This document shows, one piece after another, positions 15,886 through 37,499 of a stretch of 64,000 bases of DNA; positions within the stretch are counted from its first letter, which is position 1, and each line of letters opens with the position of its first letter. The position numbers and the translations under genes were made by a program. The notes below the pieces were generated by a model that worked only from the letters and a program-made list of their open reading frames with translations, searched no databases and was not told the DNA's origin. Origin of the DNA: an uncultured Gammaproteobacteria bacterium. GTDB taxonomy: Bacteria > Patescibacteriota > Microgenomatia > UBA10105. The DNA lies in the NCBI GenBank assembly GCA_964387625.1, contig CAYLWN010000001.1, forward strand, positions 35,560 through 99,559, in the 5' to 3' direction.

Positions 15886-17049
15886 ATGAAAAATTTATTA
15901 AAGCCTATTAGCTATAACAAACAATCAATTGATACTCTAGACATTAAATCTGTTATTAAGGTTTTAAAATCCGATTTTTTGACACAAGGACCTTTGATTG
16001 AAAAATTTGAAAACGAACTGACAAAATATTGCAAAGTAAAATATGCAGTAGTTTTCTCTTCAGGTACTTCAGCTTTGCATGGAGCATGTTATGCAGCGGG
16101 AATCAAAAAAGGGGATGAAGTGATAACAACTCCTATGACATTTGCTGCTTCAGTAAATTGTGTGATGTATTGTGGTGGTATACCTGTATTTGCTGATATT
16201 AAGCCAGAAATTCCATTAATTGATCCAAACGAAATATTAAAAAAAATTACTAAAAAAACTAAAGCCATAATTCCGGTTGATTATTCAGGAATGCCAGCAG
16301 ACTATGATGAAATTAGTGAAATTGCCAAAAAACATAATTTGATAGTTATTGCTGATGCGTGTCATTCATTAGGAGCTACATATAAAGGAAGCAAGGCTGG
16401 TTCGTTAGCTGACATGTCTATTTTTAGTTTTCATCCGGTAAAATCTATAACTACAGGAGAAGGAGGAGCTGTATTAACAAATAATTATAAATTTTATCAG
16501 AGACTAATATTGTTTCGGACGCATGGCATTACCAAAGATCCTAAACTATTTATTAACAAAAACGAAGGTCCTTGGTATTATGAAATGCAGGATTTAGGCT
16601 TTAATTACCGATTAACGGATATTCAAGCAGCGCTAGGCTTATCTCAATTAGTCAAATTATCTAAATTTATCAAGGTACGTCAAAAAATTGCTGGTTTTTA
16701 TCAACGACAACTAAAAAACATTAGCAATATAAAATTTTTAACAGTTCCCAAAAATAGAACGTCATCTTGGCATTTATTTCCAATACAAATTAGAAACATT
16801 TCATTTTTTCAAAAAACACTATTGGTAAAAATGCTGCATAAAGCCAATATCAAAGTACAAGTTCATTACATACCAGTTCATTTGCAACCGTATTATACAA
16901 AGAAGTTTGGATATAAAAAAGGAGATTTTCCAATTTCTGAAAAATTCTATCAAGAGGAAATTTCAATACCGATTTATCCAAATCTTACAAAAAATGAACT
17001 TAATTATGTACTAATGAATTTACTACTAAATAGTAATAAAATGAATTAG
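15886..17049 (+). CDS. pseC: DegT/PseC-like PLP-dependent UDP-4-keto-6-deoxy-sugar aminotransferase
   Basis: The N-terminus 'QSIDTLDIKSVIKVLKSDFLTQGP' matches the PseC signature. Also 'FSFHPVKSITTGEGG', with the PLP lysine, and 'GFNYRLTDIQAALG'. Confidence 0.65.
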   Translation: MKNLLKPISYNKQSIDTLDIKSVIKVLKSDFLTQGPLIEKFENELTKYCKVKYAVVFSSGTSALHGACYAAGIKKGDEVITTPMTFAASVNCVMYCGGIPVFADIKPEIPLIDPNEILKKITKKTKAIIPVDYSGMPADYDEISEIAKKHNLIVIADACHSLGATYKGSKAGSLADMSIFSFHPVKSITTGEGGAVLTNNYKFYQRLILFRTHGITKDPKLFINKNEGPWYYEMQDLGFNYRLTDIQAALGLSQLVKLSKFIKVRQKIAGFYQRQLKNISNIKFLTVPKNRTSSWHLFPIQIRNISFFQKTLLVKMLHKANIKVQVHYIPVHLQPYYTKKFGYKKGDFPISEKFYQEEISIPIYPNLTKNELNYVLMNLLLNSNKMN

Positions 17050-17473
17050 ATCTGAAGATCGAAAAATTGTTCTTTTGAAATATTTTTAAAGAAATTATAT
17101 TGTTTTTCTTTATTTTTGCTTTTATTGGTATTTTTCTAGTTTTAACCAGCTTTAGGGTTTTTTGAAGAAAGTAGCTTCCATAACCCTGATTTAAAAAACG
17201 TTTATCAATTCCTATAGATAAATAATAAATGTTTCTCGCTAAGTTGTATCTACAATATCCAATAATTATATTTTCTGAATATTTTAAATTGACTTCAAGT
17301 AAAAATATGTAATTATTAGAATTGTCTAAGAATTTTTTATACCACTTTATGTGTTGAGAGAATTGAATTAACTCCGTATTGATAGATTTATTTCTTACGT
17401 GTTTTTGATTTCTGATTAACAATAAACTCTTTGCGTCAGAAAGTTTTGCTTTTCTAATAGACAAATTATTCAT
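17000..17473 (-). CDS. GNAT family N-acetyltransferase (PseH-like candidate)
   Basis: The 'NQGYGSYFLQKTLK' acetyl-CoA motif A is present. I set the start at the first ATG (17473), which forms an ATGA overlap with the stop of the upstream synthase gene. The track start at 17491 is TTG. The 3' end overlaps convergent pseC by 50 nt. Confidence 0.5.
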   Translation of the reverse strand: MNNLSIRKAKLSDAKSLLLIRNQKHVRNKSINTELIQFSQHIKWYKKFLDNSNNYIFLLEVNLKYSENIIIGYCRYNLARNIYYLSIGIDKRFLNQGYGSYFLQKTLKLVKTRKIPIKAKIKKNNIISLKIFQKNNFSIFRSNSFYYYLVVNSLVHN

Positions 17474-18525
17474 TCTTGAATCATTTTCCAACTTAAAGGT
17501 GACCCTTTTTCAATATTTTGTTTTGCAGCTTTTCCAATAATCTGATCTAGATATACAGGCGATATTCCATATCCTGGTCTAATGCACTTAATATTTTTAT
17601 AAGTAATACGTTCTCCTTTTTTTATATCTTTTACAGCAAACAACGAACGTTTAAAAATGATATTTTCAGATTCTTGTTTATCAGGTTTATATGTAATTTT
17701 TCCCATAGCTTTTTCTACATCACGAATAGTTATTACCAATTGTTTCATTTCCTTAGGTTCGAGAGAAAAAGTTGAATCATATCCATCATCTTTTCTGGAT
17801 AAAGTAATATGTTTTTCAATTATTTTTGCTCCCATTGCAACAGCAGTGATTGAAGCAGTTAATCCTAAACTATGATCAGATAATCCGGTAATTACTTTAA
17901 ATTTATGTTGAATATCTTGCATAGTTCTTATGTTCATTTGATTTAAAGTGGCAGGATATGAGCTGATACAATGTAATACTGCAATATTTTTTGATCCTGC
18001 AGTTTTAAGCGTTTTAATGGCTAATTTAATATCTTCAAGCGACGCTAATCCTCTAGAAATAATTACCGGTTTTTTAGTTTTGCCAATACGTTTTAATAGT
18101 TCTAAATCTATATTTTCAAATGACGCAATTTTATATAATGAAACATTCATTTTTTCTAAAAAATCTACCGCAGAATTATCAAATGGGGTAGAAAAACAAA
18201 TCAAACCTTTTTTTTCTGCATAAGATTTTAGCTTGGGTTGCCATTCCCAAGGTGTGTATGTTTTTTGATATAAAGTATAAAGGGTAGTACCTTTCCATTT
18301 TCCGGAAGTTATTTTAAACCATTTTTTATTGCTGTTTATTGTTAATGTTTTGGGAGTATATGTTTGTAATTTTATTGCGTCAACACCAGATTTTGCTGCC
18401 TCATCTACAATTTTATAAGCTTGATCGATATCTTGATTGTGGTTTCCTGACATTTCAGCAACTATAAAACACGGTGAGTTTTCACCAATTGTTTTTTTTC
18501 CGATTTTGAAGTTAATATTATTCAT
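17470..18525 (-). CDS. NeuB/PseI/LegI-family nonulosonic acid synthase (TIM barrel + C-terminal SAF domain)
   Basis: 'GENSPCFIVAEMSGNHNQDIDQAYKIVDEAAKSGVDAIKLQTYT' is the canonical N-terminus of sialic/pseudaminic acid synthases. The C-terminal 'RPGYGISP' block is an SAF domain. Confidence 0.75.
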   Translation of the reverse strand: MNNINFKIGKKTIGENSPCFIVAEMSGNHNQDIDQAYKIVDEAAKSGVDAIKLQTYTPKTLTINSNKKWFKITSGKWKGTTLYTLYQKTYTPWEWQPKLKSYAEKKGLICFSTPFDNSAVDFLEKMNVSLYKIASFENIDLELLKRIGKTKKPVIISRGLASLEDIKLAIKTLKTAGSKNIAVLHCISSYPATLNQMNIRTMQDIQHKFKVITGLSDHSLGLTASITAVAMGAKIIEKHITLSRKDDGYDSTFSLEPKEMKQLVITIRDVEKAMGKITYKPDKQESENIIFKRSLFAVKDIKKGERITYKNIKCIRPGYGISPVYLDQIIGKAAKQNIEKGSPLSWKMIQE

Positions 18526-19657
18526 TCTGTTTTTCCCAGATATTATCTTTTAACCAGTTTCCTTTTTTATCTTTATTCCATACTAAAGAGTTTCTGAATG
18601 AATTTGCAATTTTCCAAAAATCTTTTTCGCTCATGTTGACATATTTAAGCCAATAATTTAAATCCTTAGGTATTATATGGTCATATTTTTTTACCATTTC
18701 TATGCCTTGTTTGCGAGTCATATATCCCATTTTAATATCTTTTGAAGCATGATCAGATGCTCTACCATATCCGAATTTTATATATTTTAAATAGTCATGA
18801 AGACCGTTTTCATAACGGTCATCCAGATTGGAAAAATTTCTATAGGTTCTGTCAAACGGTTTTTTTCTTGGTTTCCAACCGTATTTTTTTTGTATAAGTT
18901 TTGCATGCTGATTAGGATCCCATTTAAAAAAGTTTCCTATATAAAGACCTTTCACTCCTACTTTTAGAATTTCCTCATCAGCCGGATATTTTGCCCATAA
19001 AAGATCTTTTTCAGTAAGTTTTTCTTGAGAATCTGTAATTAAGTCATACCATTCAAAGCCTCTTAAGGAATGCTCATGCCTGCTTCTGTTGCTAAATTCA
19101 ACAAAATCTTCAGGTTCATACATACCTGAAATATCCCAGGCAATTTCTCCCCAAATAATCAATGGAATATTAAATTTGACTGCAATTTGAATTGGATAAG
19201 TTGAGATACCGCAGTGCGCATGCCAATTCATATCTCCCATTTTTCTAAAACATAGGCGGTTTAATTTTTTTAATACTTCCACACTGGGACCAAATACGAG
19301 ATGATCTGCATCAAATTTGTGACGCATTTGATCGCGGTTATAATCACCTTCAGGTAAATAATTATTACCGTGATATGTAACCAAAAGAGGTTTTAATCCA
19401 TATTCTTTAACAATTGTGTGTGTTTGAAAATAACTATCTTTACCGCCACTAACAGGAATTACACAATCATAATTTGACTTATTATTTTTTGTTGTTTGCG
19501 TTATGATCTGTAAAAACTTTTTTTTCCTTATTTTCCAAAACTCGTTTGTTAATTTCTTAAATTTTTCAAATGTCCGACAACTTGAACATACGCCATTTTC
19601 ATCGATATATAAATTGACAGCAACTTCAGGATAGACACATTTTTTACAATATCGCAT
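18518..19657 (-). CDS. N-acetyl sugar amidotransferase (PP-loop ATPase; PseA/WbuX family)
   Basis: N-terminal Cys-rich ribbon (CKKCVYPE...CSSC) and a PP-loop 'SGGKDS' motif. About 380 aa, as in WbuX/PseA. A GGAGG Shine-Dalgarno lies 4 nt upstream of the ATG. Confidence 0.65.
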   Translation of the reverse strand: MRYCKKCVYPEVAVNLYIDENGVCSSCRTFEKFKKLTNEFWKIRKKKFLQIITQTTKNNKSNYDCVIPVSGGKDSYFQTHTIVKEYGLKPLLVTYHGNNYLPEGDYNRDQMRHKFDADHLVFGPSVEVLKKLNRLCFRKMGDMNWHAHCGISTYPIQIAVKFNIPLIIWGEIAWDISGMYEPEDFVEFSNRSRHEHSLRGFEWYDLITDSQEKLTEKDLLWAKYPADEEILKVGVKGLYIGNFFKWDPNQHAKLIQKKYGWKPRKKPFDRTYRNFSNLDDRYENGLHDYLKYIKFGYGRASDHASKDIKMGYMTRKQGIEMVKKYDHIIPKDLNYWLKYVNMSEKDFWKIANSFRNSLVWNKDKKGNWLKDNIWEKQNE

Positions 19658-19734: not shown

Positions 19735-20550
19735 CTATTTTTTATCTATTAAAATCAAATCTGGTGATCTAACATTAAAACCATTTTCAAATAAATACTT
19801 TTTTGCCAAATAAACACTTTGATCAGTATATTGGAAAATATTTGCGGCTGCTATTGCATCAACTTTTGTTTTTGTCAAGGCTTCAGCGAAGTGACTCCAC
19901 TCACCAACTCCGCCACAAGCTATAATCGGGATTTTAACGCAATCTGCGACTTCTTTAATTAAGTGTATGTCATAACCATTTTTGACACCGTCTCTATCTA
20001 CAGAATTTAATAGTATTTCTCCGGCGCCAAAATTTTCGACAGTTTTTGCCCAATCAACAGGATTATAGCATGTTGGTTTAAGACCGTATTCAGACATAAC
20101 GATGTATTTATTATTAATTTTTTTTACATCGATTGAAACTACTATGCATTGTGATCCGAATTCATGTGCAGATTCGGATATAAATTTAGGTTTTTTCAAA
20201 GCTATCGTATTGATAGAAATTTTATCTGCCCCCTTCTTAAGTCTGATTTCAATATCGTTTAAATTTTTTATTCCACCTCCGACCGTAATTGGCATCAAGG
20301 CAACCTTAGAGACGTCATTTATAATATCTAAGAAATTATTTCTATTGGGGTTGTGAATATCATTACGTCGTAGGTCATAATTTTTATTTCTAGATATATC
20401 TAAATATATTAACTCGTCAGCAGCCCATTCACTCAATCGTTTGACTGAAGTTACAGGGTTGCCTAAATTTTGGAAACGTTTAAATTGCTTACTTTGAACC
20501 AACCAACCGTTCTTTAATAGAAGTACAGGTACCAAGCGCTTTTTCTTCAT
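19735..20550 (-). CDS. HisF-like cyclase subunit (WbuZ family) of the sugar amidotransferase system
   Basis: The N-terminus 'RLVPVLLLKNGWLVQSKQFKRF...GNPV' matches the HisF (beta/alpha)8 N-terminus. 'ADELIYLDI' and 'GGGI' blocks are also present. Confidence 0.65.
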   Translation of the reverse strand: MKKKRLVPVLLLKNGWLVQSKQFKRFQNLGNPVTSVKRLSEWAADELIYLDISRNKNYDLRRNDIHNPNRNNFLDIINDVSKVALMPITVGGGIKNLNDIEIRLKKGADKISINTIALKKPKFISESAHEFGSQCIVVSIDVKKINNKYIVMSEYGLKPTCYNPVDWAKTVENFGAGEILLNSVDRDGVKNGYDIHLIKEVADCVKIPIIACGGVGEWSHFAEALTKTKVDAIAAANIFQYTDQSVYLAKKYLFENGFNVRSPDLILIDKK

Positions 20551-21161
20551 AAATTTAGGAAATTATATAAAAGCATTTGTCCGGCTTTTTGGCTTTTTTC
20601 TGGATGGAATTGAACACCGTAAATATTATCCATATTAATAATAGCTGCGAAATTATTTCCATAGTTTGTTTGAGCAATCAAATTTTTTTTATTTTTTGGT
20701 TGAAATACAAAACTATGGACAAAATAAAAATCAAGAGTCTTAAATTGTTTAGTTAATGGTGAGGTTTGTATGACTTCTATATTATTCCAACCGATATGAG
20801 GTAATGGAAGGAATCCTGAATCCAATTTTTTTACTTCTCCCGGAATCCACCCTAGTCCAGTAGTGATTTCAAATTCATATCCTTTATTGGCTAGTACCTG
20901 CATTCCAACGCAAATACCTAAAAAAGGTTTTTTATCTGTAAAAACAGCTTTTTCTAAATGAGTCATAGGGATTAACTGATGGATCTTTCGCATTGCCGCT
21001 GCATATGCGCCAACGCCAGGTAAAATCAAATGAGTAGCATTTTCAATATCACGGGTTTGGTTTGAAATAGTAACATTAGGGTTTAATGTTGTTGCTAAAT
21101 TAAATACAGATTTTACATTACCTGATCCATAGTCCAGAATGCAAATACTAATTTTTTTCAT
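20547..21161 (-). CDS. HisH-like glutamine amidotransferase subunit (WbuY family)
   Basis: 'ISICILDYGSGNVKSV', 'LILPGVGAY', 'PFLGICVGMQVL' with the catalytic Cys, and 'HSF'/'QFHPEKS' with the catalytic His. This is the class I GATase triad. Confidence 0.7.
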   Translation of the reverse strand: MKKISICILDYGSGNVKSVFNLATTLNPNVTISNQTRDIENATHLILPGVGAYAAAMRKIHQLIPMTHLEKAVFTDKKPFLGICVGMQVLANKGYEFEITTGLGWIPGEVKKLDSGFLPLPHIGWNNIEVIQTSPLTKQFKTLDFYFVHSFVFQPKNKKNLIAQTNYGNNFAAIINMDNIYGVQFHPEKSQKAGQMLLYNFLNL

Positions 21162-21293: not shown

Positions 21294-22301
21294 TTATCCC
21301 TTTTTTATTCCAGATGCAGAGTAATATTCTCGGGTTTGCATAGCTTGTTCAAGTAATTTACCTGGTGTATAAAACCTATCACCTAAAATTACACGATCCA
21401 ATATCGGCTTATTATTTTTATCTACTAATTTATTTATTATAAGAGAGCCTTCATTACAAGCGACAAATAAGGAATTTGAATTAATTCGGTATATGATACC
21501 AGTTTGAAAAGGATGAAATTTACCGTCAGTTGTAATACAATAACAATCTTTAATCCTGACTAATTTTCCGTTTAAAAATGTCATAGCACCAGGATAAGGA
21601 TCATCAAAGGCGCAAATGAAACTTTCAATATCAAAAAGTGTCCAACTCCAGTCGATGTATGCGTGTTTATTGGTTGCTAGTCTTGGCCAGTAACTGCTGA
21701 AATATTCAGTTTGTGAAATATGTTTAAATTCGTTATTTTTCTCTATTTTTTTAATAAATGACCCAATAAATTTTAGGTATTGATTCGTAGAAAATTTTTG
21801 AAAATCTAAAGAAATACGACAAAAGGCAGGAAATACATATTCTTCGTAATATACGATATCTCCGGTATCTACTCCGTCGTCAATTAAATGAATTAGGTTA
21901 AATCCTTGCCGGTCTTTCCGTAATATTCTCCAGGAGAATCCACCGCCACCTCTGTCCTGAGGAAGTTTACTACCATGTAGATTAATTAATCTAGAATTAA
22001 ATTTTCTAATAAAACTTGATTTAAAAATCCAAGCAGCTCCTATTGAAATACCTAAAGTAGTTGGAGTGATAATTTCATCAATAATTTTATTATTTAAATT
22101 GGATAATGAAATGTAAGGAATTTTATTCTTATTTAATAATGTGGCTAAAGTAATTCCTATATCAGGAAGGATTTCATTAACGTGTCGTGGGCTGGTGACA
22201 ACAGTAATTTTTTTTTCTTGTTTAGTTAGGGTAATTGCCAATTCACCCAATAATTTTCCGCCGCCAAGAAGTAAATAATGGTCAATTTTTCCAAATCGCA
22301 T
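21294..22301 (-). CDS. formyltransferase-fold protein (Fmt/PurN/ArnA-N-like; putative sugar N-formyl/acyl transferase)
   Basis: 'INLHGSKLPQDRGGG' corresponds to the N-x-H...SLLP..RG catalytic loop. 'LIHLIDDGVDTGDIV' corresponds to the H..D.G.DTG.I motif. There is an Fmt-like C-terminal domain. Confidence 0.5.
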   Translation of the reverse strand: MRFGKIDHYLLLGGGKLLGELAITLTKQEKKITVVTSPRHVNEILPDIGITLATLLNKNKIPYISLSNLNNKIIDEIITPTTLGISIGAAWIFKSSFIRKFNSRLINLHGSKLPQDRGGGGFSWRILRKDRQGFNLIHLIDDGVDTGDIVYYEEYVFPAFCRISLDFQKFSTNQYLKFIGSFIKKIEKNNEFKHISQTEYFSSYWPRLATNKHAYIDWSWTLFDIESFICAFDDPYPGAMTFLNGKLVRIKDCYCITTDGKFHPFQTGIIYRINSNSLFVACNEGSLIINKLVDKNNKPILDRVILGDRFYTPGKLLEQAMQTREYYSASGIKKG

Positions 22302-22584: not shown

Positions 22585-23895
22585 TTATGTGAGGCGAAAA
22601 AATCCTTTATGAGCAGAAGTGCTTTTTAGATGGCTTTCGATATTGTTTTCTTTTATATATTTAGATAATAGTGAAAAAGTAGTATCCAAATGTTTAAGAT
22701 AATTATTTATATGGTTAACTTTATGAGCATATGAAACGTAAAATGCATTAGTTACCAAAAAACCCTTTTCAAGCATGATCTGGATCATCAGTGTTTTTAT
22801 TGCCTGACTATTTGGATAATTAAATTCAAAATGACTTAGAGGATAAATACCGCTAATTGTGATATTAATGTGATTTTTGGATGCAATTTTACGCCATCCA
22901 TTCTGAACAAATTTACCAATTTTATTTATATAAGGAATTATTTTTTTTGTTTTAATAAATTTTATAGTTGCTAAAGCAGTTGTTGGTCCACATCTGTCTG
23001 TCCAAAAAGTGCTGCTAATAAACGAGTCCTGAGCTGCATTCATAAAACTAGATTTTCCTATAATAGCTGCCATGGGAAAACCATTGCTAATAGCTTTTCC
23101 TAAAACAGCAATATCCGGATTAATGTCTAATTTCAAATGGGCGCCTCCCAAACTTAATCTGAATCCAGCAGTAACTTCATCAAAAATTAAAGCGACACCA
23201 TATTTTTGGGTCCGAGATCTGATGGTGGTTAGAAAATCCTTATTGGGATAAGTATTTCGAATAGGTTCCATCACTACTGCTGCCAAATCTTTTTTTAGTT
23301 GATCAAATTTTTGAGTGAATTCTAATAAATTATTATAAGTAAACGGTACAGCGGTTCCAAGAAGACTACGAGGAACACCCTTAGATTCAAGACCAGGTAA
23401 TAAATGATCATCAAGAGCTTTGTCGTTATTTAAATTAGCTGCCAAATACCAGTCATGCCAACCATGGTAACCGCAAAAAAGGATTTTGTCTTTACCAGTT
23501 GCAGCACGAGCAATTCTTACTGCAATAGCCATTGCTTCACCACCGGTTCGGCTATAACGCACTTGTTGTGCCCAAGGATGAAGTTTAATAAGTAACTTAG
23601 CCAATTCAACTTCTTCCGGATTATTGAGAGTACACATATTTCCTTTGTTAATTGCATTTAACGCTGCGTTGTCAATCTCTTTATTAGCATATCCAATAAT
23701 ACTCGCGCCTATGCCCATATAGCTCATATCAAAATAATGTCGACCATCTAAATCCCAAACCTCACATCCTTTTGCTCTTGAATAATATGCAGGCCAAAGA
23801 TCCGGTAAAAACATTTCAGGACGTTTGGATAAAAGCTGAGTACCTCCGGGAATAATTTGTTTTGCAATTTTATATAAACGTTGTGATTTGTCCAT
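22585..23895 (-). CDS. class III PLP aminotransferase, glutamate-1-semialdehyde aminomutase-like
   Basis: N-terminal 'IPGGTQLLSKRPEMFLP...P.YYSRAKGCEVWDLDGRHYFD', with a 'YSRTGGEAM' block. 436 aa. Confidence 0.6.
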   Translation of the reverse strand: MDKSQRLYKIAKQIIPGGTQLLSKRPEMFLPDLWPAYYSRAKGCEVWDLDGRHYFDMSYMGIGASIIGYANKEIDNAALNAINKGNMCTLNNPEEVELAKLLIKLHPWAQQVRYSRTGGEAMAIAVRIARAATGKDKILFCGYHGWHDWYLAANLNNDKALDDHLLPGLESKGVPRSLLGTAVPFTYNNLLEFTQKFDQLKKDLAAVVMEPIRNTYPNKDFLTTIRSRTQKYGVALIFDEVTAGFRLSLGGAHLKLDINPDIAVLGKAISNGFPMAAIIGKSSFMNAAQDSFISSTFWTDRCGPTTALATIKFIKTKKIIPYINKIGKFVQNGWRKIASKNHINITISGIYPLSHFEFNYPNSQAIKTLMIQIMLEKGFLVTNAFYVSYAHKVNHINNYLKHLDTTFSLLSKYIKENNIESHLKSTSAHKGFFRLT

Positions 23896-23904
23896 GAATT
23901 AATC

Positions 23905-24675
23905 CTAAATAACAACTTTCTTATCTAATTTAAGAGATTTTTGATAGCCAATATTTCTAGAGATATATTTATTAATATTTTCCAGTTCCGGGTGTTTTTG
24001 AATGAATTTGATTATATCACTTATGCTAAAATACGGTTTTATATTATATAATCCTTGGTAGATTTTTTTAATAAATTTATAATCTTCCGGATAATCAAGT
24101 GTCCACCTTTTGTTTGAAAGGTCGATAGAGTTTTTAAAATCAAAAATTGAGAACAATTTTGGATGTTTATAAATAAAAGACGTGACATGTTCACGTTCAG
24201 ACAATAATTTTGCTTTTTGCCAGGTTTTTTTTAAAGTTAAATAAGTCATAATTTCAATATCTTCACCATCCGGATAAGTAGGAGGCTGACTATTTGTAGA
24301 ATAATCATTTTTTTGTTTTTCATGGCATAATATCATTTGATCTACCAATTGAGGATCAATCAACGGGCAATCCGAAGTTATACGGATGATGTTTTGTAAT
24401 TGGAATAATCTGGCTGCTTGATAATAGCGATCTAAAACATCATTAGTTGATCCACAATAAACATGTGTTTGTAAATTAAAACAAATTTTCAAAATTTCCA
24501 GATCTTTTTTTTCAATTGTGGTTGCAATAATTAAGATAGAAGACTTTTTAACCCTATTAAGTCTTCTAATTATGTGTTCTAAAACAGTTTTTTTACAAAT
24601 TGGTAAAAGTATTTTATTCGGTAAACGAGTAGATCCGCATCTAGCCTGCACAACGATACCGTATTTATGTGACAT
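23905..24675 (-). CDS. CMP-sugar synthetase / cytidylyltransferase (SpsF/NeuA/KdsB family)
   Basis: N-terminal 'GIVVQARCGSTRLPNKIL' matches the SpsF-like 'QAR.GSTRLP.K' signature. Confidence 0.55.
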   Translation of the reverse strand: MSHKYGIVVQARCGSTRLPNKILLPICKKTVLEHIIRRLNRVKKSSILIIATTIEKKDLEILKICFNLQTHVYCGSTNDVLDRYYQAARLFQLQNIIRITSDCPLIDPQLVDQMILCHEKQKNDYSTNSQPPTYPDGEDIEIMTYLTLKKTWQKAKLLSEREHVTSFIYKHPKLFSIFDFKNSIDLSNKRWTLDYPEDYKFIKKIYQGLYNIKPYFSISDIIKFIQKHPELENINKYISRNIGYQKSLKLDKKVVI

Positions 24676-25642
24676 AATGTTTTGTATTTTTTATATTTAA
24701 AGCAATTCTTAATGTTTGTGAAGCTGATATAACTGAATTTAAGGTATTTCGTTTTTGTTTAACACAGTCCAGAAAATATTTGATTTCATCTATATACATT
24801 TGATTTAAATTATAAGATCTAGGTTCTTCAATCAATTGCCATTTCTTGGTGTTGTGGGAATAAATCTTTACTAAATGTTCTGAAAAATTCCATATGATTG
24901 TGCCTTTTTCGCCGATTATTTTACAATTTCGTGAATAATTATGTTGTAAATAGTCAAGGTGAATATTTACAATCGGGCCTGACTCGAATTTTAAAAGGAC
25001 ATCAGCTACGTCTTCAGTGTCAATATCTAATTTAGATACCTTACCATACATAGATATTTGTTTAATTATTTTTCCAAAAAACCAAATTGCATAATCGAGT
25101 TCATGAATTCCATCAAGAATAATACCGCCTCCCATTATTTTTTGCGCAGAATATGTTTTTCGATAATTGTTTTTTCTCCATTCGGGTAAGTACGAACCTG
25201 ATTCAATATGTGCTGCGTATAATTTACCAATTATTTTCTTTGAGATTAACTCTTTAATCTTACGTATTGCCCAGTAATAACGCATATTACATCCAACCAT
25301 AGTTGTTAAATTTTTATCATCTATTATTGTTAATAATCTTTTTATACTCTTTAAATTGTTTGATAAAGGTTTTTCAATAAAAATGTGGCAACCCATATGA
25401 GCAGCTTTAATAGCATATGATATATGTGTATAAGTTGGAGTATTTATAAAAACTATGTTAGGTAATTGTTGCCAAATACTGTTTATCTTGTTGCAAAAAA
25501 CAACAGAAGGCAGTATTTTTTTAGCCTTAAAAATTTGTCCCTTGGAAGTATCAAAAATAATTACATCCCGATATCCAAGTTTTGATAAATTATTCAAATG
25601 TCGTAAACCTATTGAGCCTACACCAATTAGCGCTATTTTCAT
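24665..25642 (-). CDS. Gfo/Idh/MocA family NAD(P)-dependent oxidoreductase
   Basis: N-terminal 'KIALIGVGSIGLRH' Rossmann motif and an 'EKPL' block typical of the family. Confidence 0.6.
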   Translation of the reverse strand: MKIALIGVGSIGLRHLNNLSKLGYRDVIIFDTSKGQIFKAKKILPSVVFCNKINSIWQQLPNIVFINTPTYTHISYAIKAAHMGCHIFIEKPLSNNLKSIKRLLTIIDDKNLTTMVGCNMRYYWAIRKIKELISKKIIGKLYAAHIESGSYLPEWRKNNYRKTYSAQKIMGGGIILDGIHELDYAIWFFGKIIKQISMYGKVSKLDIDTEDVADVLLKFESGPIVNIHLDYLQHNYSRNCKIIGEKGTIIWNFSEHLVKIYSHNTKKWQLIEEPRSYNLNQMYIDEIKYFLDCVKQKRNTLNSVISASQTLRIALNIKNTKHYVT

Positions 25643-25774: not shown

Positions 25775-26764
25775 ATGTTTAACTGGTCAAAACAAGTAAT
25801 TCTATTAACAGGAGGTACTGGTTCGTTTGGACAAGCATTCACTAAAACTGTATTAAAACTACATCCACCAAAAAGTTTACGGATTTATAGTCGGGATGAA
25901 TATAAACAATTCGAAATGGAAAAAATAATTTCTCATCCGCATGTAAGATATTTAATTGGTGATGTAAGAGATAAAGATAGATTACAAAGAGCTATGGATG
26001 GCGTAACCCTTGTTATTCATGCAGCCGCGATGAAACAAATAGAGGCTTGTGAATACAATCCCACTGAAGCAATTAAAACCAATATAAACGGAAGTATGAA
26101 TGTAATAGAAACCGCTTTAAATGCAAATGTGGAAAAAGTAATGGGCATAATTACAGATAAAGCTGTATCTCCTGTTAATTTATATGGAGCTACTAAATTG
26201 TGTATGGAAAAACTTATGATACAAGGAAATGTTTATACAGGTAAAAATAAAACTACTATCAGTTGTGTTAGATATGGAAACGTTGCGGGAAGCAGAGGGA
26301 GCGTAATTCCGGTTTTCATAAAACAAAAAGAAAACGGAAAATTCACCGTAACTCATAAAGACATGACTAGGTTTTGGATTACTTTAGAAGAAGCAGTGGC
26401 ATTTGTTATATCATCTATTGAAAAAATGAAAGGTGGGGAAGTATTTATTCCCAAAATGCCAAGTTTTAAAATTATAGATTTAGTTAAAGCAATAGATTCT
26501 AAAGTAAAAATACAATATATAGGAGTTAGATCCGGAGAAAAAATTCATGAGGATTTGGTATCGCAACACGAATCAAGAAATATTGCAGAGTTTAAAAATT
26601 ATTATATTCTATCACCTGATTTTGAATTTTGGAATGATAATAAAAAAACAAATAATAATGGAAATAATAAGGTTATTGTTAATTTTTCCTATAATAGTGG
26701 TAATAATAAATTTTTTCTTACAGTTAAGCAACTAGAAAAACAAATAAGTAATCTTCTTGTATGA
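25775..26764 (+). CDS. pseB: UDP-GlcNAc inverting 4,6-dehydratase PseB (FlaA1 family)
   Basis: Near-collinear match to the remembered PseB/FlaA1 sequence: 'ILLTGGTGSFGQAF...YSRDEYKQFEME...RYLIGDVRDKDRL..AM.GV..VIHAAAMKQIEACEYNPTEAIKTNINGS.NVIE.AL...VEKV..I.TDKA.SPVNLYGATKLC.EKL....N.....KT..S.VRYGNV.GSRGSVIP.F...K......T...MTRFWITL'. Confidence 0.8.
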   Translation: MFNWSKQVILLTGGTGSFGQAFTKTVLKLHPPKSLRIYSRDEYKQFEMEKIISHPHVRYLIGDVRDKDRLQRAMDGVTLVIHAAAMKQIEACEYNPTEAIKTNINGSMNVIETALNANVEKVMGIITDKAVSPVNLYGATKLCMEKLMIQGNVYTGKNKTTISCVRYGNVAGSRGSVIPVFIKQKENGKFTVTHKDMTRFWITLEEAVAFVISSIEKMKGGEVFIPKMPSFKIIDLVKAIDSKVKIQYIGVRSGEKIHEDLVSQHESRNIAEFKNYYILSPDFEFWNDNKKTNNNGNNKVIVNFSYNSGNNKFFLTVKQLEKQISNLLV

Positions 26765-28647
26765 ATACAACGGTAATACTCACCTCTTCTGATTCAGAAG
26801 TTAAATTTGCAATTTCATACCAAAAATCAAATGCTGATAAAAAAGTAATTATTTTAACACCAACTTTAACAGGACAAAAACTATTACGTAATTTAGGATT
26901 AAATTATTTTGATTATTTTAAATATGGTCACGTGAGCCATTCAGATTATTATCAAAAATATTTTTGGAATTTTGAAATTAAAGTAACTTATTTGGTACAA
27001 AAAGTTTTAAAAAATCTTGTAGCAAGATTTCCAGATTTTAAAAAATGGATTTTACCAAATCAGGATTGGTTAGAATTAGTTTATTTAGAAGTATTGGATA
27101 CTTATCAATACTGGCTTTCAATTAATAAATTATTACCCGGATCCCATTATTTGAAATTTTATTATCATAATAAAATACGTACTGACATATATTATCCCTA
27201 TCAAAGTCAAATGCAAATATTATCAATGTTCGTTCCCAAACATAGAATAACTATTATTGATAAACATAATTTTTTAGAAAAAATTATTAAAATATTTATA
27301 AATCTCTACATTTATATTCAGATTATTCCCAACTTATTGATTAATGTTAATACAATAATACACCGATTAATTACTAATTATTTAACTGATAAAAAATTAT
27401 ATAAAACAGATATTTTGATATATTCTGCAGGTAGAAATCTTCTTTATTATGAAAGTTTAATCAAATTACTAAATAAAGAAAAAATATACAAAGGAATTCA
27501 AATTCTTACTGGTTTTCAAACTATCGAAGATGAAGTTGTATTGAATAATACAGGTTTTAAATATATTTCTGCAAATAATGTTATTCCTAACGAATTTAAC
27601 AAGAAAAAGGATAATCTTAAAAAGAAGTTAATAAGTCGCCTTAAGAATATATATACCAGCTATGATTACTCAACCTGTTTAAGTGGTTTTCCAAAATTAG
27701 TTGAAGAAATTTTAATATCAAAGACAAAAGAAGTATTAATTACAAATATTTCAAAAATTATTTCTCAAACAGATATAGCTGAATATTCAATCAAGATGAT
27801 AAAACCACGACTATTGATTACAACTCACGATCCAGGTCCTACTGCATTGCCATTTGTGTTAGCGGCAAAAAAAATGAAAATAAAATCATTATTATTAATG
27901 CATGGATGGCAAAATACACTTATTGGGAATAGATATTATAGTGATTATATTGTTGTTTGGGGAAAATATATAGCTAAATGGTATAAAAAAAGATTAAGGT
28001 ATAATCCAAAAAAAATATTAGCAATAGGATATCCTGCTTTAGATAAATATTTTAAAAATAAGCAGGCTTTTTGGAAAAAAAGACAAATTCTTCCTACGTT
28101 CAAACAAAAAACCAATTTGGGATTGTTATTAACAATGTATTTACCAAACACAGCATTATTATCAAAATTTCTTACTGAACTATTTTGTGAATTAAGAAAC
28201 AATCACAATTTTATTATTAACATCAGACTTCATCCAGGGCAACCCTCTGATGGATTTAAAACACTGGCAAAAGAATTTGGTATAAACGCTAGATTTGGTC
28301 AATCTGTGACTCTTGATAATTTTATTAAAAATAATGATTTTTTGTTGGTTTGGGATACCACCGCAATTATTTGGTGTATGATTTATGGTAAACCATTGTT
28401 TTATTGTGCTCCCAATTGGGGTTTGGGTATAACGCCGATAAATAAATTTGGCGGAGCTTGGTTGGTTAATAGTCCTTCTGATTTATTGATTAAAATTGAA
28501 AATTATATAAAAAATCCAAAAATTATATATAAGTTACATAAAAAGCAAAAAATTTTTTTAAAAAATATAATGGGAATAATTGATGGATCTTCATCAAAAA
28601 GACATAAAAATTTAATTCTAAATTTACTAAAAAGATCTAAATATTAA
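26761..28647 (+). CDS. large hypothetical protein (628 aa), candidate GT-B-like glycosyltransferase; function unknown
   Basis: ATGA-coupled to pseB. No family recognised by eye. The C-terminal half contains 'IINIRLHPGQ', a possible HP motif like CMP-sugar-dependent GT-B enzymes and KpsC/KpsS-like transferases. Confidence 0.35.
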   Translation: MNTTVILTSSDSEVKFAISYQKSNADKKVIILTPTLTGQKLLRNLGLNYFDYFKYGHVSHSDYYQKYFWNFEIKVTYLVQKVLKNLVARFPDFKKWILPNQDWLELVYLEVLDTYQYWLSINKLLPGSHYLKFYYHNKIRTDIYYPYQSQMQILSMFVPKHRITIIDKHNFLEKIIKIFINLYIYIQIIPNLLINVNTIIHRLITNYLTDKKLYKTDILIYSAGRNLLYYESLIKLLNKEKIYKGIQILTGFQTIEDEVVLNNTGFKYISANNVIPNEFNKKKDNLKKKLISRLKNIYTSYDYSTCLSGFPKLVEEILISKTKEVLITNISKIISQTDIAEYSIKMIKPRLLITTHDPGPTALPFVLAAKKMKIKSLLLMHGWQNTLIGNRYYSDYIVVWGKYIAKWYKKRLRYNPKKILAIGYPALDKYFKNKQAFWKKRQILPTFKQKTNLGLLLTMYLPNTALLSKFLTELFCELRNNHNFIINIRLHPGQPSDGFKTLAKEFGINARFGQSVTLDNFIKNNDFLLVWDTTAIIWCMIYGKPLFYCAPNWGLGITPINKFGGAWLVNSPSDLLIKIENYIKNPKIIYKLHKKQKIFLKNIMGIIDGSSSKRHKNLILNLLKRSKY

Positions 28648-28701: not shown

Positions 28702-29937
28702 TTAAATAATCTTTATTTTGGGAACAGGAATGATGAATTTACCGCCATTTTTGCTGTATTTAACTTGTTTGTTTATAATTTCTTTTACAAAATTCCAGGC
28801 TAAAATTAACACATAATCTGGTTGACGGTTAATGATTTCTATTTCAGGATAAATAGGAATATGTGTGCCTGGAGTATAAAGACCTTGTTTATATGATGTT
28901 GAGTCTACTATGAAATCAATTAATTTATTATCAATTTTGCTGTAGTTTAATAATATGTTGCCCTTTGCTGCTGCGCCATATCCGGCAATTGTTTTTCCCT
29001 GTATTTTTAATTTTTTTAATGTTTTTTTTAGTAATTTACATAATTGTTTTACATTTTTTGCAAACTTAATATAAGTTTTTGCATCATACAAGCCAACTTT
29101 TATTTCTTGCTGAAACAGTTTATTTATTTGATTATTTATTTTATATACTGATGATTTTTTAGCTAAAAATATTCTTAAAGAACCTCCATCAATTGACGTG
29201 CGTTGAACATCAATAAGTTTAAGATTGGATCGTTTGATTAGATAAATTAATGGCTTAATTGAAAAGTATGATAGATGTTCATGGTAAATCGTATCGAATT
29301 GATTTTTCCGTATTAAGTCCAATAAATAAGGAAACTCACAGATAAAAACTCCATTATCTGATAATAATTGTTCCACAGAAAGCAATAAGTCTGGTAAATC
29401 ACTGATATGTGCTACCACATTGGTAGCTGTAATAATATCTGCTGAACCATATTTGGATTTAATTTTTTTGGACAACTTAATAGATATGTAATCGTTAATT
29501 GTTTCAATACCTTTAAGAACTGCAATTTTAGCTAAATTTTCAGCCGGATCAATGCCAAGTGTACGGTATCCCAATCCCTTAAAATATGAAAGCATGCTGC
29601 CATCATTGCTTCCAATGTCAATTATCAGAGAATTTGATTTTAATTTAAATTTTTTTTGAGCTTGTAAAGCTATAGTTTCAAAATTGTTCATTCTGGTTTT
29701 TGAAGATGATGGAATATAAACATAATTTTTAAACATTTCCTCCGGATTTACTATTTCCGTAAGTTGTACTAGACCGCAAATATTACAATAACCAGCAGTG
29801 AGTGGATAGAATTTTTCTGATTTTTTTAACTGTTCTTTGGTTAAAAAGCCATTTGGTAAAGGAATTGAGCCAAAAGCAAAAAATTTGGTTATTTTTCTAC
29901 TATTACAAATACGACATTTCGTAATTTTTTTAATCAT
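28702..29937 (-). CDS. NDP-hexose C-methyltransferase family protein (second TylCIII/TcaB9-like paralog)
   Basis: Same architecture as 11654..12892: CRIC...CNIC Zn ribbon, 'IIDIGSNDG', 'DTIYHEHLSY', 'AGYGAAAKGNILLNY', 'YTPGTHIPI'. About 50% identity to the first copy by eye. Confidence 0.6.
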   Translation of the reverse strand: MIKKITKCRICNSRKITKFFAFGSIPLPNGFLTKEQLKKSEKFYPLTAGYCNICGLVQLTEIVNPEEMFKNYVYIPSSSKTRMNNFETIALQAQKKFKLKSNSLIIDIGSNDGSMLSYFKGLGYRTLGIDPAENLAKIAVLKGIETINDYISIKLSKKIKSKYGSADIITATNVVAHISDLPDLLLSVEQLLSDNGVFICEFPYLLDLIRKNQFDTIYHEHLSYFSIKPLIYLIKRSNLKLIDVQRTSIDGGSLRIFLAKKSSVYKINNQINKLFQQEIKVGLYDAKTYIKFAKNVKQLCKLLKKTLKKLKIQGKTIAGYGAAAKGNILLNYSKIDNKLIDFIVDSTSYKQGLYTPGTHIPIYPEIEIINRQPDYVLILAWNFVKEIINKQVKYSKNGGKFIIPVPKIKII

Positions 29938-33897: not shown

Positions 33898-34989
33898 TTA
33901 ATTGTATATTATCTTTTTAAATACTTGTTCTAATTTATTAGCATACATGTTTATATTGTATTTACTTTTTATTATTTTTCTGGCATTTCTGCCTATTTTT
34001 TCCCTTAGTGATTGAGATTTATTTAATTTATTAATTGCTAGTATTGCACTGTTAAAATCATATGGAGGTATCACGACGCAATGTTTGTAATTTATAAACT
34101 GATATTCGCCGACTCCTGATGTTTTTGTAAATATTACAGGTTTTTCGCAACTCATGCATCTAAATGCTGTACTTTGTCCGGAAAAATAATGATTTGTTTT
34201 TGTTAAAAGTAAAACAAATTTAGATTGCCAGACTCTTTTTCTTAATGTTTCATAATTAACGTTATATTCAAATATTACATTATTTAACGTCGTAGTTTTT
34301 ATTAAACCCTTGTGAGTAATAACTCTAAATTTTTCATTTGGAAAGTATTTCACTACTTGAAAAAAAAGATCCCAATTTCTGTATATATCAGCACCAATTG
34401 TTAATATTTCATTAGTAGATTTTATTGATTTTTTATAAAAAAATTGAGTATCAATCCCAAAGGGGATAAAAGAAAAACGGTTAATTGGAATTCTCAACAT
34501 CTTAGATAGTAATTTACATTCACTAAAACTACCTCCCGACACTATATGATCTATTTGATTAATTATATTTCTTATAATAAATAATGAAATTGGATTGTTT
34601 GACTTTATTAAACCATCATACATGCCAATCGTATTTAAGATAATTTTAGGTTTTATAAATCCTAATTTTTTCAATAGAGCTATTGGTAATCCATAAGTGT
34701 CTACAGTAGCAAAAATACAATCTGCAATGTTTAATTTTGGAATTAATAATAAAGTTGGAATTATTGAAAAGCCACTTTTATAAAATAAGGATACAAACAA
34801 ATTTAAGTAATATTGAAAAAATAATAGAAATTTATGTTTAAATACTTCATCAGTATAAATTAAGTTAAACTTTTTTATTTTTGTTAATCCATAATATAAA
34901 TCATGAGGGTTTTTATTATACTTGGTTAAATGTAAGTTTTTAGTAATTGGTCTGCGAAAAACATAAAAAAACGATTTTTTAGGCCTCAT
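33898..34989 (-). CDS. GT-B (GT4-like) glycosyltransferase
   Basis: 363 aa with two Rossmann-like halves. The C-terminus reads 'EKIGRNARKIIKSKYNINMYANKLEQVF', typical of Glycos_transf_1. The E-x7-E motif is degenerate. Confidence 0.45.
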   Translation of the reverse strand: MRPKKSFFYVFRRPITKNLHLTKYNKNPHDLYYGLTKIKKFNLIYTDEVFKHKFLLFFQYYLNLFVSLFYKSGFSIIPTLLLIPKLNIADCIFATVDTYGLPIALLKKLGFIKPKIILNTIGMYDGLIKSNNPISLFIIRNIINQIDHIVSGGSFSECKLLSKMLRIPINRFSFIPFGIDTQFFYKKSIKSTNEILTIGADIYRNWDLFFQVVKYFPNEKFRVITHKGLIKTTTLNNVIFEYNVNYETLRKRVWQSKFVLLLTKTNHYFSGQSTAFRCMSCEKPVIFTKTSGVGEYQFINYKHCVVIPPYDFNSAILAINKLNKSQSLREKIGRNARKIIKSKYNINMYANKLEQVFKKIIYN

Positions 34990-36449: not shown

Positions 36450-37499
36450 ATGAATATATGTTTTTTTGGATCTTATGATCCCAATTATTCACGAAACAGT
36501 ATATTGATTAATGGTTTAAATCAAAATAACGTTAAAGTATTTCAATGCAGATCAACTTATGGAAGTGTATTTTTACGTTATCCAGACTTAATCCGAAAAT
36601 ATTGGAAGATAAGAAACGAAATAAATGTTATTTATGTTGCGTTTGTGGGTCAGTTGAATATGCCACTGGCTTGGATTTTAGCAAGATTAACTGGTAAAAA
36701 ATTAGTATTTGATATGTTTTATTCAATGTATGATACATATGTTTATGATAGGCAAAGTGCAAAACCAAACAGTATTCAAGCAAAATTATATTTTTCAATT
36801 GATAAAATGGCTACAATTTTGGCTGATGAGGTGATAACCGATACCAAATCTTCAGGAAATTATTACAAAAAATTATTCAATATTAATCCAAACAAGTTAC
36901 ATCATGTTTATGTGGGAGCTGAAGAGATTTTTATCAAGCGAAAACATAAAGATAAGAAAAAATTAATAGTTGAATTTCACGGAATGTTTACTAGACTTAC
37001 AGGAGCCAAATATTTTATAGAAGCAGCAAAAATATTGGAAAATAATAAAAAATTGGAATTTTGGTTAATCGGTGATAGTCAAATATATAAAAAACCATTG
37101 CAATTACTAATAAAGTTAAAACCTAAAAATCTAATATATTTTCCTAAAATGCCTGTAAGGGAATTAGCTAAACATGTTTCACAAGCAGACGTTTCAATAA
37201 GTCATTTAGGAACATCAAAAAAAGCACGAATTGTAATTACCAATAAAACTTTTCATAGTTTAGCTTGCGGGATTGCTGTGATCGTTATCAATTCTTCAGG
37301 AAATAGAGAGTTATTGGAAGACAAGAAGAACGTAGTGATGGTTAGATCCGGTAATACGAAAGATTTAGTTGAGCAGATTTTAATTTTGCTTCATAATCCA
37401 AAACTTCGTCAAAATATTGCTGACAATGGTTATAGGATGTTTCAAAAATTTTTAACCAATAAGCAAATAGCCAAAGATTTGTTAATAAAAATTAGTTAG
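36450..37499 (+). CDS. GT-B (GT4-like) glycosyltransferase
   Basis: 349 aa. N-terminal 'MNICFFGSYDPNYSRN' and a Glycos_transf_1-like second half. Confidence 0.45.
   Translation: MNICFFGSYDPNYSRNSILINGLNQNNVKVFQCRSTYGSVFLRYPDLIRKYWKIRNEINVIYVAFVGQLNMPLAWILARLTGKKLVFDMFYSMYDTYVYDRQSAKPNSIQAKLYFSIDKMATILADEVITDTKSSGNYYKKLFNINPNKLHHVYVGAEEIFIKRKHKDKKKLIVEFHGMFTRLTGAKYFIEAAKILENNKKLEFWLIGDSQIYKKPLQLLIKLKPKNLIYFPKMPVRELAKHVSQADVSISHLGTSKKARIVITNKTFHSLACGIAVIVINSSGNRELLEDKKNVVMVRSGNTKDLVEQILILLHNPKLRQNIADNGYRMFQKFLTNKQIAKDLLIKIS

Follow-up and report, generated by a model that had tools for sequence, protein, structure and literature searches.

The window analysed here, 64,000 nucleotides (nt) of contig CAYLWN010000001.1 (positions 35,560 to 99,559 of the forward strand, assembly GCA_964387625.1), is one large glycan-biosynthesis island with a GC content of 27.8%, and within it a gene at 26761..28647 (+), hereafter the target, encodes a 628-amino-acid (aa) protein directly behind pseB of a pseudaminic acid (Pse) cluster. 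An original prediction, made from the letters alone, had described the product as a protein of no recognisable family, translationally coupled to pseB and a candidate for either a nonulosonate transferase or a PseG fusion. We lean, with modest confidence, towards a transferase that takes Pse or a Pse derivative from its cytidine monophosphate (CMP)-activated form and acts on a cytoplasmic glycan intermediate. The gene begins with ATG (open reading frame (ORF) list and translation) and its homologs align from the same start Met. At the junction, 'gtATGAat', the target ATG (26761-26763) and the upstream TGA (26762-26764) give a 4-nt overlap, so the coupling that had been described is there in the sequence, and the upstream gene passes the PseB model. 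The parts of the gene and its product are as follows.

25775..26764 (+), pseB, the upstream partner, encoding the inverting 4,6-dehydratase of uridine diphosphate (UDP)-N-acetylglucosamine (UDP-GlcNAc) (TIGR03589, 451.9 bits, cutoff 407.75)
26761..26764 (+), ATGA start/stop overlap with pseB (translational coupling), read in the sequence
26761..27402 (+), N-terminal family-specific domain, aa 1-214, as delimited in the models
27403..28095 (+), N-lobe of the glycosyltransferase-B (GT-B) fold, aa 215-445, with modelled strands at 218-222, 246-250, 351-354, 375-379, 396-399 and 419-421
27592-27801 (+), helical insertion of 70 aa in the N-lobe, aa 278-347, as modelled
27820..27840 (+), TTHDPGP, aa 354-360, following an N-lobe strand and holding D357
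27901..27906 (+), H381-G382, candidate general base
28096..28644 (+), GT-B C-lobe, aa 446-628, the predicted nucleotide-sugar donor-binding half (NF046086 match, C-lobe profile)
28225..28242 (+), R489-L-H491-P492-G-Q494, the 'HP' motif
28354..28365 (+), D-T533-T534-A, of the phosphate-binding Ser/Thr pair type of TagF/sialyltransferase-type GT-B enzymes
28387..28395 (+), G-K544-P545
28582..28596 (+), C-terminal DGSSS(xR) motif, shared with TagF (NGKAS) and WecB (DGKAC)

A sequence look-up returned an exact match to the target, KKP59983.1 (UniProt A0A0G0ASE3), deposited as 'hypothetical protein UR52_C0001G0063' of Candidatus Gottesmanbacteria bacterium GW2011_GWA1_34_13, and no paralog was found within the 64-kb window. 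A membrane anchor was considered and rejected, the sole hydrophobic stretch (aa ~175-197) not being kept in homologs and probably being a composition effect of a 28% GC genome. Antisense to the gene lies an 85-aa ORF with a TTG start (27945-28202 (-)), which has nothing to support it and is probably spurious in DNA so rich in AT.

An AlphaFold2 model of the target, built on the 59-sequence family alignment, reached a mean predicted local distance difference test score (pLDDT) of 93.2 and a predicted template modelling score (pTM) of 0.92, and residues ~215-628 are modelled as a single GT-B module whose C-lobe strands (451-456, 484-489, 509-512, 527-530 and 546-548) are followed by C-terminal helices. 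Foldseek against the PDB gave 213 matches at E<=1e-3, with probability 1.00 to UDP-GlcNAc 2-epimerases, TagF, TarL and MshA; the epimerases stand at the top (5ENZ at 2e-9 with a template modelling (TM) score of 0.66 on the target, and the hydrolysing NeuC 5XVS at 5e-9), followed by TagF (1.7e-8), TarL and GT4 enzymes. This structure search, which the original prediction had itself proposed, bears out the GT-B fold, although not the extent given for it, as the fold takes in aa ~215-628 with a helical insertion and not just the C-terminal half. Ahead of the module, aa 1-214 are modelled as an alpha/beta core of four strands, to which a long helical hairpin (H63-124) and helices 171-213 are added; modelled alone, this part reaches a pLDDT of 90.9, and it found no significant structural match in the PDB (best Foldseek E=0.034, TM 0.24). 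With no PseG match either, by the protein in the NCBIfam scan (E<=10) or by four family profiles against PDB sequences, the suggested PseG fusion falls away. The domain is found in about 60 full-length representatives, with other sequence in its place in distant relatives. Polar residues are nowhere invariant in it, and near-invariance is limited to L42 and to position 127, which is Gly in the target and Pro in most homologs.

By sequence, the target falls below the curated thresholds of every family tested. Its lack of a recognisable family, first noted by eye, was confirmed: Pfam gave nothing at E<=10, including the DUF115 (Maf; MAF_flag10) and Capsule_synth models that had been suggested as checks, and phmmer against PDB sequences gave nothing meaningful; MAF_flag10 matched none of the relatives either. 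The only significant curated match is to NF046086, the 'BFO_1060 family glycosyltransferase' (E=1.4e-9, 37.5 bits), which joins target aa 478-623 to profile positions 215-364 of 365, and TIGR04396 matches faintly (aa 394-441, E=0.042, 13 bits vs a cutoff of 125). A word-indexed search yielded 9 relatives with the target alone and nothing useful with the alignment of distant relatives, and an exhaustive hmmsearch with an alignment of the nine relatives yielded 4283 cluster representatives at E<=1e-3, 103 of them at E<=1e-30. The full ~620-aa architecture is present in about 60 representatives (at 50% identity). We used two alignments from here on, namely A2, the full-length family (59 sequences), and A3, which adds the target to 52 distant relatives (53 sequences) of ~15-24% identity that match mainly target residues ~200/330-630.

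Nearly all A3 sequences match NF046086 (52/53, or 51/52 relatives, best 3.3e-35) and TIGR04396 (51/53, best 9e-33). Pfam models matched fewer of the 53: Glyphos_transf 23 (best 4e-18), Capsule_synth 23, Epimerase_2 21, Glycos_transf_1 14, and the GT52 and polysialyltransferase models 2 each; the PseG model matched 4 (best 1.5e-4). An N-terminal NeuC-like fusion in the distant relatives was considered and rejected, because all of the Pfam matches overlap one C-terminal GT-B region, and we therefore read them as cross-similarity within the superfamily and not as fusions. The 150 best relatives, none longer than 693 aa, included no fusion to PseB.

Residue conservation was evaluated across both alignments. 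Within the N-lobe, D357 is conserved in 53/59 A2 and 42/53 A3 sequences and H381 in 59/59 and 51/53, with G382 and W400 also conserved. The segment 'IRLHPGQ' (residues 488-494), singled out in the original prediction as reminiscent of an HP motif, holds the sole HP of the target: R/K489 is kept in 59/59 A2 and 52/53 A3 sequences, H491 in 54/59 and 50/53, and P492 in 31/59 and 45/53, and H491 aligns with His584 of TagF and with the HP region of KpsC and WbbB, which are CMP-Kdo transferases. Further along the C-lobe, T/S533 is present in 59/59 A2 and 53/53 A3 sequences, T/S534 in 58/59 and 51/53, K544 in 58/59 and 44/53, and P545 in 57/59 and 48/53. The TagF alignment pairs R-x-H491 with R-M-H584, T533/T534 with an 'SS' pair and DGSSS with NGKAS; T533/T534 also correspond to 'SGG' of WecB, and the K544-P545 motif to 'GKP' of WecB and 'KRP' of TagF. 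Residue W538 (28372-28374), four after T534, is Trp in 38/59 A2 sequences and Glu/Asp in 41/53 A3 sequences, and it falls within the Glu-Glu pair of the WecB 'QEEA', on the first Glu with the full-length profile and on the second with the C-lobe profile.

Profiles of the separate lobes, searched against PDB sequences, gave different neighbours. The C-lobe profile matched a GT28 diglucosyl-diacylglycerol synthase (5.8e-8), the TagF-like polymerase Cps3D (7e-7), WecB (1.4e-6), TagF (5e-6), TarL (9e-6) and KpsC (1e-5), and then WbbB (GT99, 1.3e-3), WaaA (5e-3) and the polysialyltransferase SiaD (8.5e-3). The N-lobe profile gave marginal matches only, all of them to epimerase-family N-lobes (0.006-0.05), with D357 on the Asp of the epimerase 'GD(T)' and H381 on the Glu of 'EAG', positions that in E. 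coli WecB are occupied by the catalytic residues Asp95 and Glu117; the same search gave no alignment between H381 and His444 of TagF. A motif search found no [DE][DE]G, DxD or QxxxKD in the target, and with no Pfam match either, membership of GT52, GT80, GT38 or GT107, the families named for checking, is not supported.

To place the target among its neighbours, ten distinct loci with visible flanks were compared: the window, L002, L003, L004 (the same place as L005 and L012), L006, L007, L008, L009 (the same place as L001), L014 and L015. A genome-contig scan gave one locus and a metagenome scan with the family alignment A1 gave four. Homologs in these loci are 26-39% identical to the target, and in 8/10 the homolog adjoins pseB (30-39% identity), always inside a Pse cluster. 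Four loci (the window, L008, L014 and L015) have the 4-nt ATGA overlap, and the other junctions are a 1-nt overlap (L002), gaps of +3 nt (L003) and +7 nt (L007) and, in one locus, an inverted pseB/target order with a 52-nt gap. One exception is L006, where the homolog lies between an oxidoreductase/cytidylyltransferase/NeuB block and a GT4; another is L009 (Candidatus Chisholmbacteria, JACOWY010000057.1, 870-3114), where a homolog of only 501 aa, which lacks most of the N-terminal domain, overlaps a downstream CTP_transf_3 gene and not pseB. The gene content of the L009 cluster (a split NeuB, a PIG-L deacetylase, two ATP-grasp proteins, a HAD hydrolase and a PEP-utilising enzyme) points to a possibly different nonulosonate derivative as its product. 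Beyond these loci, two very distant relatives lie beside Wzt/Wzt_C and between Wzx and Wzy, positions that are typical of transferases.

Most of the longer loci (not L009) share further companions, namely a 515-aa membrane protein, a PMT_2 protein, a divergent GT4, a DUF6798 protein and a 350-aa GT4. The last of these (36450-37499 (+), Glycos_transf_1 / Glyco_trans_1_2) is conserved at 44-53% identity, with counterparts in L006 (11871-12950), L007 (11188-12258) and L013 (1322-2359); in three loci it is directly downstream of the target homolog and elsewhere it follows the DUF6798 membrane protein, and it is likely a partner in building the same glycan as the target. A divergent GT4-like protein of 363 aa (33898-34989 (-)), beside an RmlD-like gene, has orthologs at 31-49% identity in L002, L003, L004 and L007 and weaker ones in L014 and L015, and only its C-lobe matches known GT4 enzymes (PglA, BshA). 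L003 also carries a bona fide Pse-associated methylase (TIGR03587, 263.6 bits).

The Pse block that supplies the genomic context lies upstream of the target and reads as follows.

15886-17049 (+), PseC (TIGR03588, 488.5 bits, above cutoff)
17000-17491 (-), PseH-like GNAT (weak PseH match, 28 bits vs a cutoff of 93; TTG start as listed)
17470-18525 (-), PseI (TIGR03586, 461.5 bits, above cutoff)
18518-19657 (-), WbuX (336.6 bits)
19735-20550 (-), HisF-like protein
20547-21161 (-), HisH-like protein
21294-22301 (-), formyltransferase-like protein
22585-23895 (-), class-III (HemL-like) aminotransferase
23905-24675 (-), CTP_transf_3 cytidylyltransferase
24665-25642 (-), GFO/IDH/MocA oxidoreductase

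With PseB, PseC and PseI above curated cutoffs and one cytidylyltransferase present, a CMP-sugar is made in the cluster, and the WbuX/HisH/HisF amidotransferase trio implies an acetamidino group on the Pse. The cytidylyltransferase, the sole one in the block, finds its best NCBIfam matches in KdsB-type models (~1e-14). Together with the oxidoreductase and the class-III aminotransferase it forms a second trio, which is found at 48-66% identity in L014 and L015, is absent from L002-L004 and may make a further modified CMP-sugar. At the start of the block, the PseH-like GNAT ORF and the PseC gene converge, with their 3' ends overlapping by 50 nt.

Missing from this inventory is PseG. Window ORFs of >=110 aa were considered, part of them scanned by NCBIfam and the remaining scanned ones by Pfam only, with an E cut-off of 1e-5 in the main scans, at which a very divergent PseG could escape (the ORFs 48-566, 563-913, 37505-39079, 60913-61692 and 62785-63960 were left unscanned). 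Within that scope NCBIfam gave no match to PseG (TIGR03590) and Pfam no PseG/MurG-type domain, and the nine further Pse loci likewise had no recognisable PseG (TIGR03590 or Glyco_tran_28_C), a negative that covers the loci only, as the carriers' remaining genomes may encode PseG elsewhere. PseB, PseC, PseI, the GNAT and a cytidylyltransferase are present where PseG was not found, and we found no literature precedent for Pse clusters that lack it. With PseG found in none of the ten loci, the UDP-sugar hydrolysis step is therefore left without an assigned gene. Several hiding places were considered and rejected: a 671-aa DegT fusion in L006 has a GT2-type-like extension with no similarity to window proteins, the 363-aa neighbour is GT4-like with a C-lobe of PglA/BshA type, and the small unassigned proteins of the syntenic loci turned out on scanning to be a Pse-associated methylase, a formyltransferase-like protein, a PIG-L deacetylase, a thioredoxin-like protein and a HAD hydrolase, none of them PseG. 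Nor did sialyltransferase, Maf or KpsS-type families match any scanned window ORF other than the target, and no other scanned protein is of the CMP-ulosonate transferase type. In the scanned ORFs, the earlier statement that neither PseG nor a CMP-nonulosonate transferase can be identified besides the target holds.

From these results we interpret the target as a probable CMP-Pse transferase. Judged from sequence, it appears to sit in the corner of the GT-B superfamily that uses CMP or cytidine diphosphate (CDP) donors, nearest to the Pse/legionaminic acid (Leg) transferase family of Tannerella forsythia, the sole GT-B-type family of such transferases with genetic validation, and because such a protein is locked into Pse clusters that carry a cytidylyltransferase and offer no other candidate, a CMP-Pse transferase is the most likely function. 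The nonulosonate-transferase half of the original prediction thus gains from the GT-B fold, the NF046086 match, the conserved HP motif and the Pse synteny in ten loci. As modelled, the 214-aa domain and the 70-aa insertion would fit acceptor recognition better than they would a simple hydrolase.

The mechanism that we propose takes its steps from homologous enzymes. The analysis itself shows the predicted fold, the conserved motifs, the remote homology and the synteny, while the donor and acceptor, the part played by each residue and the stereochemistry of the reaction are inferred. The target would be a cytoplasmic, soluble or peripheral GT-B enzyme whose donor is the CMP-Pse made by the genes around it; the WbuX/HisH/HisF genes make an acetamidino derivative probable. 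Its C-lobe would hold CMP, with R489, H491 and T533/T534 contacting the phosphate and K544 contributing, and in the N-lobe H381, with D357 nearby, would be the base that activates an acceptor hydroxyl as CMP leaves. The Pse sugar would go onto a hydroxyl of a growing surface glycan, and aa 1-214 together with the insertion (aa 278-347) may serve to recognise an acceptor or partner protein. Export and attachment of the completed glycan would then fall to the Wzm/Wzt transporter and the many nearby GT-C-type membrane proteins.

Several observations weigh against this assignment. The best structural likeness of the target, and the only sequence likeness of its N-lobe, is to UDP-GlcNAc 2-epimerases, a family that includes the nucleoside diphosphate (NDP)-sugar hydrolases of the sister neuraminic acid (Neu) and Leg pathways, and with no PseG found in the ten loci the target is the only conserved soluble protein of unassigned role for an essential step. 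Its NF046086 score (37.5 bits) is far under the curated cutoff of 200 and covers the donor lobe only, it has neither the D/E-D/E-G nor the DxD motif of the T. forsythia enzymes, and the cytidylyltransferase of the Pse block falls short of the PseF model; the roles of the whole target family are themselves predicted. These points lead to an unlikely but substantive alternative, in which the target is a non-orthologous replacement of PseG, its GT-B fold binding UDP-2,4-diacetamido-2,4,6-trideoxy-beta-L-altropyranose and H381/D357 activating water, so that the free sugar is released for PseI as it is by PseG (a MurG-like GT-B enzyme) or by NeuC/LegG (of the epimerase family). Such a role would suit the alignment of D357 and H381 with the catalytic Asp and Glu positions of the epimerases, the place of hydrolysing NeuC (5xvs, 5e-9) among the top Foldseek matches, the lack of PseG or Glyco_tran_28_C in the scanned window ORFs and nine loci, the GT4-like and not PseG-like character of the other conserved soluble protein of unassigned role (33898-34989), and the tight, conserved translational coupling to PseB, the first enzyme of the pathway. 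It is doubtful, though conceivable, that the ~620-aa family as a whole is the missing PseG of candidate phyla radiation (CPR) Pse pathways, a second independent recruitment of GT-B as a UDP-sugar hydrolase. Such a hydrolase might have arisen from a CMP-nonulosonate transferase or be combined with one, and it might work in a PseB complex, as the conserved stop/start overlap with pseB would suggest. A hydrolase is nevertheless hard to reconcile with the absence of PseG sequence similarity in the protein and its four family profiles, with the 4/53 sequences that match the PseG model (best 1.5e-4) against 52/53 for the transferase model, and with a length of 628 aa that, extra domain included, is ~2x that of known NDP-sugar hydrolases. 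T. forsythia moreover holds both PseG and a BFO_1060-type enzyme, the distant relatives lie between wzx/wzy and beside wzt, PseG could sit in the carriers' genomes beyond the loci searched, and the cluster would be left without any candidate CMP-Pse transferase.

Less probable still is that the target releases CMP as a TagF-like or other transferase with a donor other than CMP-Pse, either as a CDP-alditol/CDP-sugar phosphotransferase or as a user of another CMP-activated acid made by the cytidylyltransferase trio. TagF and TarL are among its structural and profile matches with the His584 equivalent conserved, Glyphos_transf is matched by 23/53 A3 sequences (best 4e-18), a CDP-glucose 4,6-dehydratase-like enzyme is on the island, and the cytidylyltransferase is nearer the KdsB type than PseF, with its trio together in the window, L014 and L015. 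Against such a donor, the target itself has no Glyphos_transf match at E<=10, no alignment was obtained between H381 and TagF His444, genes of the TagD/TarI/TarJ CDP-alditol type were not seen in the scanned ORFs, and the conserved partner is PseB, whose coupling is kept in L002, L003 and L004 where the trio is absent. The original prediction had named a TagF-like hit as grounds for dropping the nonulosonate assignment; such likeness was found at the level of superfamily neighbours and not as a Glyphos_transf match of the target's own, and since the T. forsythia transferases, TagB-like by CDD, have the same neighbours, we treat it as a rival function and not as a refutation. Very improbable is a double role, with transfer and PseG-type hydrolysis in one protein or with an N-terminal domain that docks PseB and channels the pathway. 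Such a role would account for two functions without genes beside one conserved protein of unassigned role, for the conserved PseB coupling and for an extra N-terminal domain that matches no known fold, but a UDP-hexose and a CMP-nonulosonate would both have to fit a single GT-B site, the N-terminal domain shows neither a hydrolase-like fold nor any invariant polar residue, and none of the 150 best relatives is fused to PseB. A CMP-Pse transferase stays our preferred interpretation.

The rest of the island is consistent in character with glycan assembly. Elsewhere in the window there are at least 8 GT4 and at least 4 GT2 transferases, an RmlD-like gene, CDP-hexose genes including the one for the CDP-glucose 4,6-dehydratase-like enzyme, and at least 6 membrane proteins with 9-10 helices, some of which match PMT_2, together with the following.

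44540-45862, UDP-glucose dehydrogenase
48975-50198, UDP-galactopyranose mutase
51828-53401, Wzm/Wzt ABC exporter

Directly downstream of the target on the opposite strand, 28702-29937 (-) encodes a protein with the sugar C-methyltransferase domains Methyltransf_13, Methyltransf_23 and Methyltransf_14, conserved at 63-70% identity in L003, L014 and L015; it forms a paralogous pair (~411 aa each) with 11654-12892 (-), whose product was scanned by NCBIfam only. Next to the latter, an ORF of 127 aa (11274-11657 (+)) matches Wzx-type flippases in their C-terminal domain only (Polysacc_synt_C); it could be what is left of a gene, or its start may be mis-called. NCBIfam matches were absent for the ORFs 54666-56723, 56767-57972 and 57969-59138 (all (+); 685, 401 and 389 aa; E cut-off 1e-3) and 59191-60855 ((+), 554 aa; E cut-off 0.01), and 42555-43523 ((+), 322 aa) had neither an NCBIfam match (E cut-off 1e-3) nor a Pfam match.

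Characterised Pse/Leg transferases are few (Maf/PseE, FlmG, KpsS1 (GT118) and the T. forsythia enzyme), and their scarcity is acknowledged to hold back glycoengineering and the understanding of these virulence-associated sugars. The target adds a new family with no Pfam model, a confident predicted structure, a fixed partner in pseB and candidate catalytic residues, and it shows small-genome CPR bacteria (Gottesmanbacteria, Chisholmbacteria) investing in a 60-kb glycan island and a Pse pathway with no recognisable PseG. If the target were instead the hydrolase, the canonical six-enzyme Pse pathway would need revision. General principles are unchanged, as the prediction stays inside a known enzyme superfamily.

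Among known systems, the closest are the T. forsythia enzymes. BFO_1060 is the strain 92A2 ortholog of Tanf_01245 / TFUB4_00887. When these are deleted, the S-layer O-glycan of T. forsythia loses its terminal Pse5Am7Gra or Leg derivative; the native gene restores the sugar when put back, and the Pse and Leg transferases are not interchangeable (PMC5420450). These transferases have a conserved C-terminal part with an HP motif, for which CMP binding was proposed, and are TagB-like by CDD (PMC5420450). The NF046086 enzymes of T. forsythia resemble the target in lying beside a CMP-Pse cluster that makes acetamidino-type Pse, in their donor lobe (homology over target aa 478-623) and in the HP motif; they differ in length (~445 aa vs 628 aa), the 214-aa N-terminal domain being unique to the target, and in that T. 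forsythia also has PseG, whereas none was found in the target loci. TIGR04396, the 'surface carbohydrate biosynthesis protein', is an uncharacterised family matched by most A3 sequences, with the target far below its cutoff.

TagF, TarL and Cps3D (PDB 3L7I, 8VA1, 8QOY) share the GT-B fold, the R-x-H, the Thr/Ser pair and the C-terminal DGxSS with the target, and they release CMP as in the reaction proposed here, but the target has no Glyphos_transf (PF04464) match and no detectable TagF similarity in its N-lobe, and its context is a nonulosonate pathway and not a CDP-alditol pathway. The HP-region profile matches KpsC (of KpsC/KpsS, GT107) and WbbB (GT99), whereas the target has no QxxxKD and no Capsule_synth match and gives no evidence for an Asp nucleophile; among the GT-B-type Pse transferases cited, only KpsS1 (GT118) is defined biochemically (PMC12887879). 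Sialyltransferases of GT52, GT80 and GT38 share the HP motif, but the target has no Pfam match (Glyco_transf_52, A-2_8-polyST) and no D/E-D/E-G. UDP-GlcNAc 2-epimerases including NeuC (5ENZ, 3DZC, 5XVS) are the best structural matches (E ~2e-9), and their GD, EAG, HxxP, SGG and GKP positions correspond to D357, H381, H491, T533/T534 and the GKP of the target, which differs from them in having no Epimerase_2 (PF02350) match, an invariant His in place of the Glu and a Trp at the ribose-contact Glu position. PseG shares only the GT-B fold class with the target and would fill the one enzymatic gap of the cluster, but it is less than half the size, finds no match by the protein or four family profiles and is not in the top 50 Foldseek matches. 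Set beside these systems, the target founds an uncharacterised family whose fold, motifs and probable chemistry are those of known enzymes, and it is no new system.

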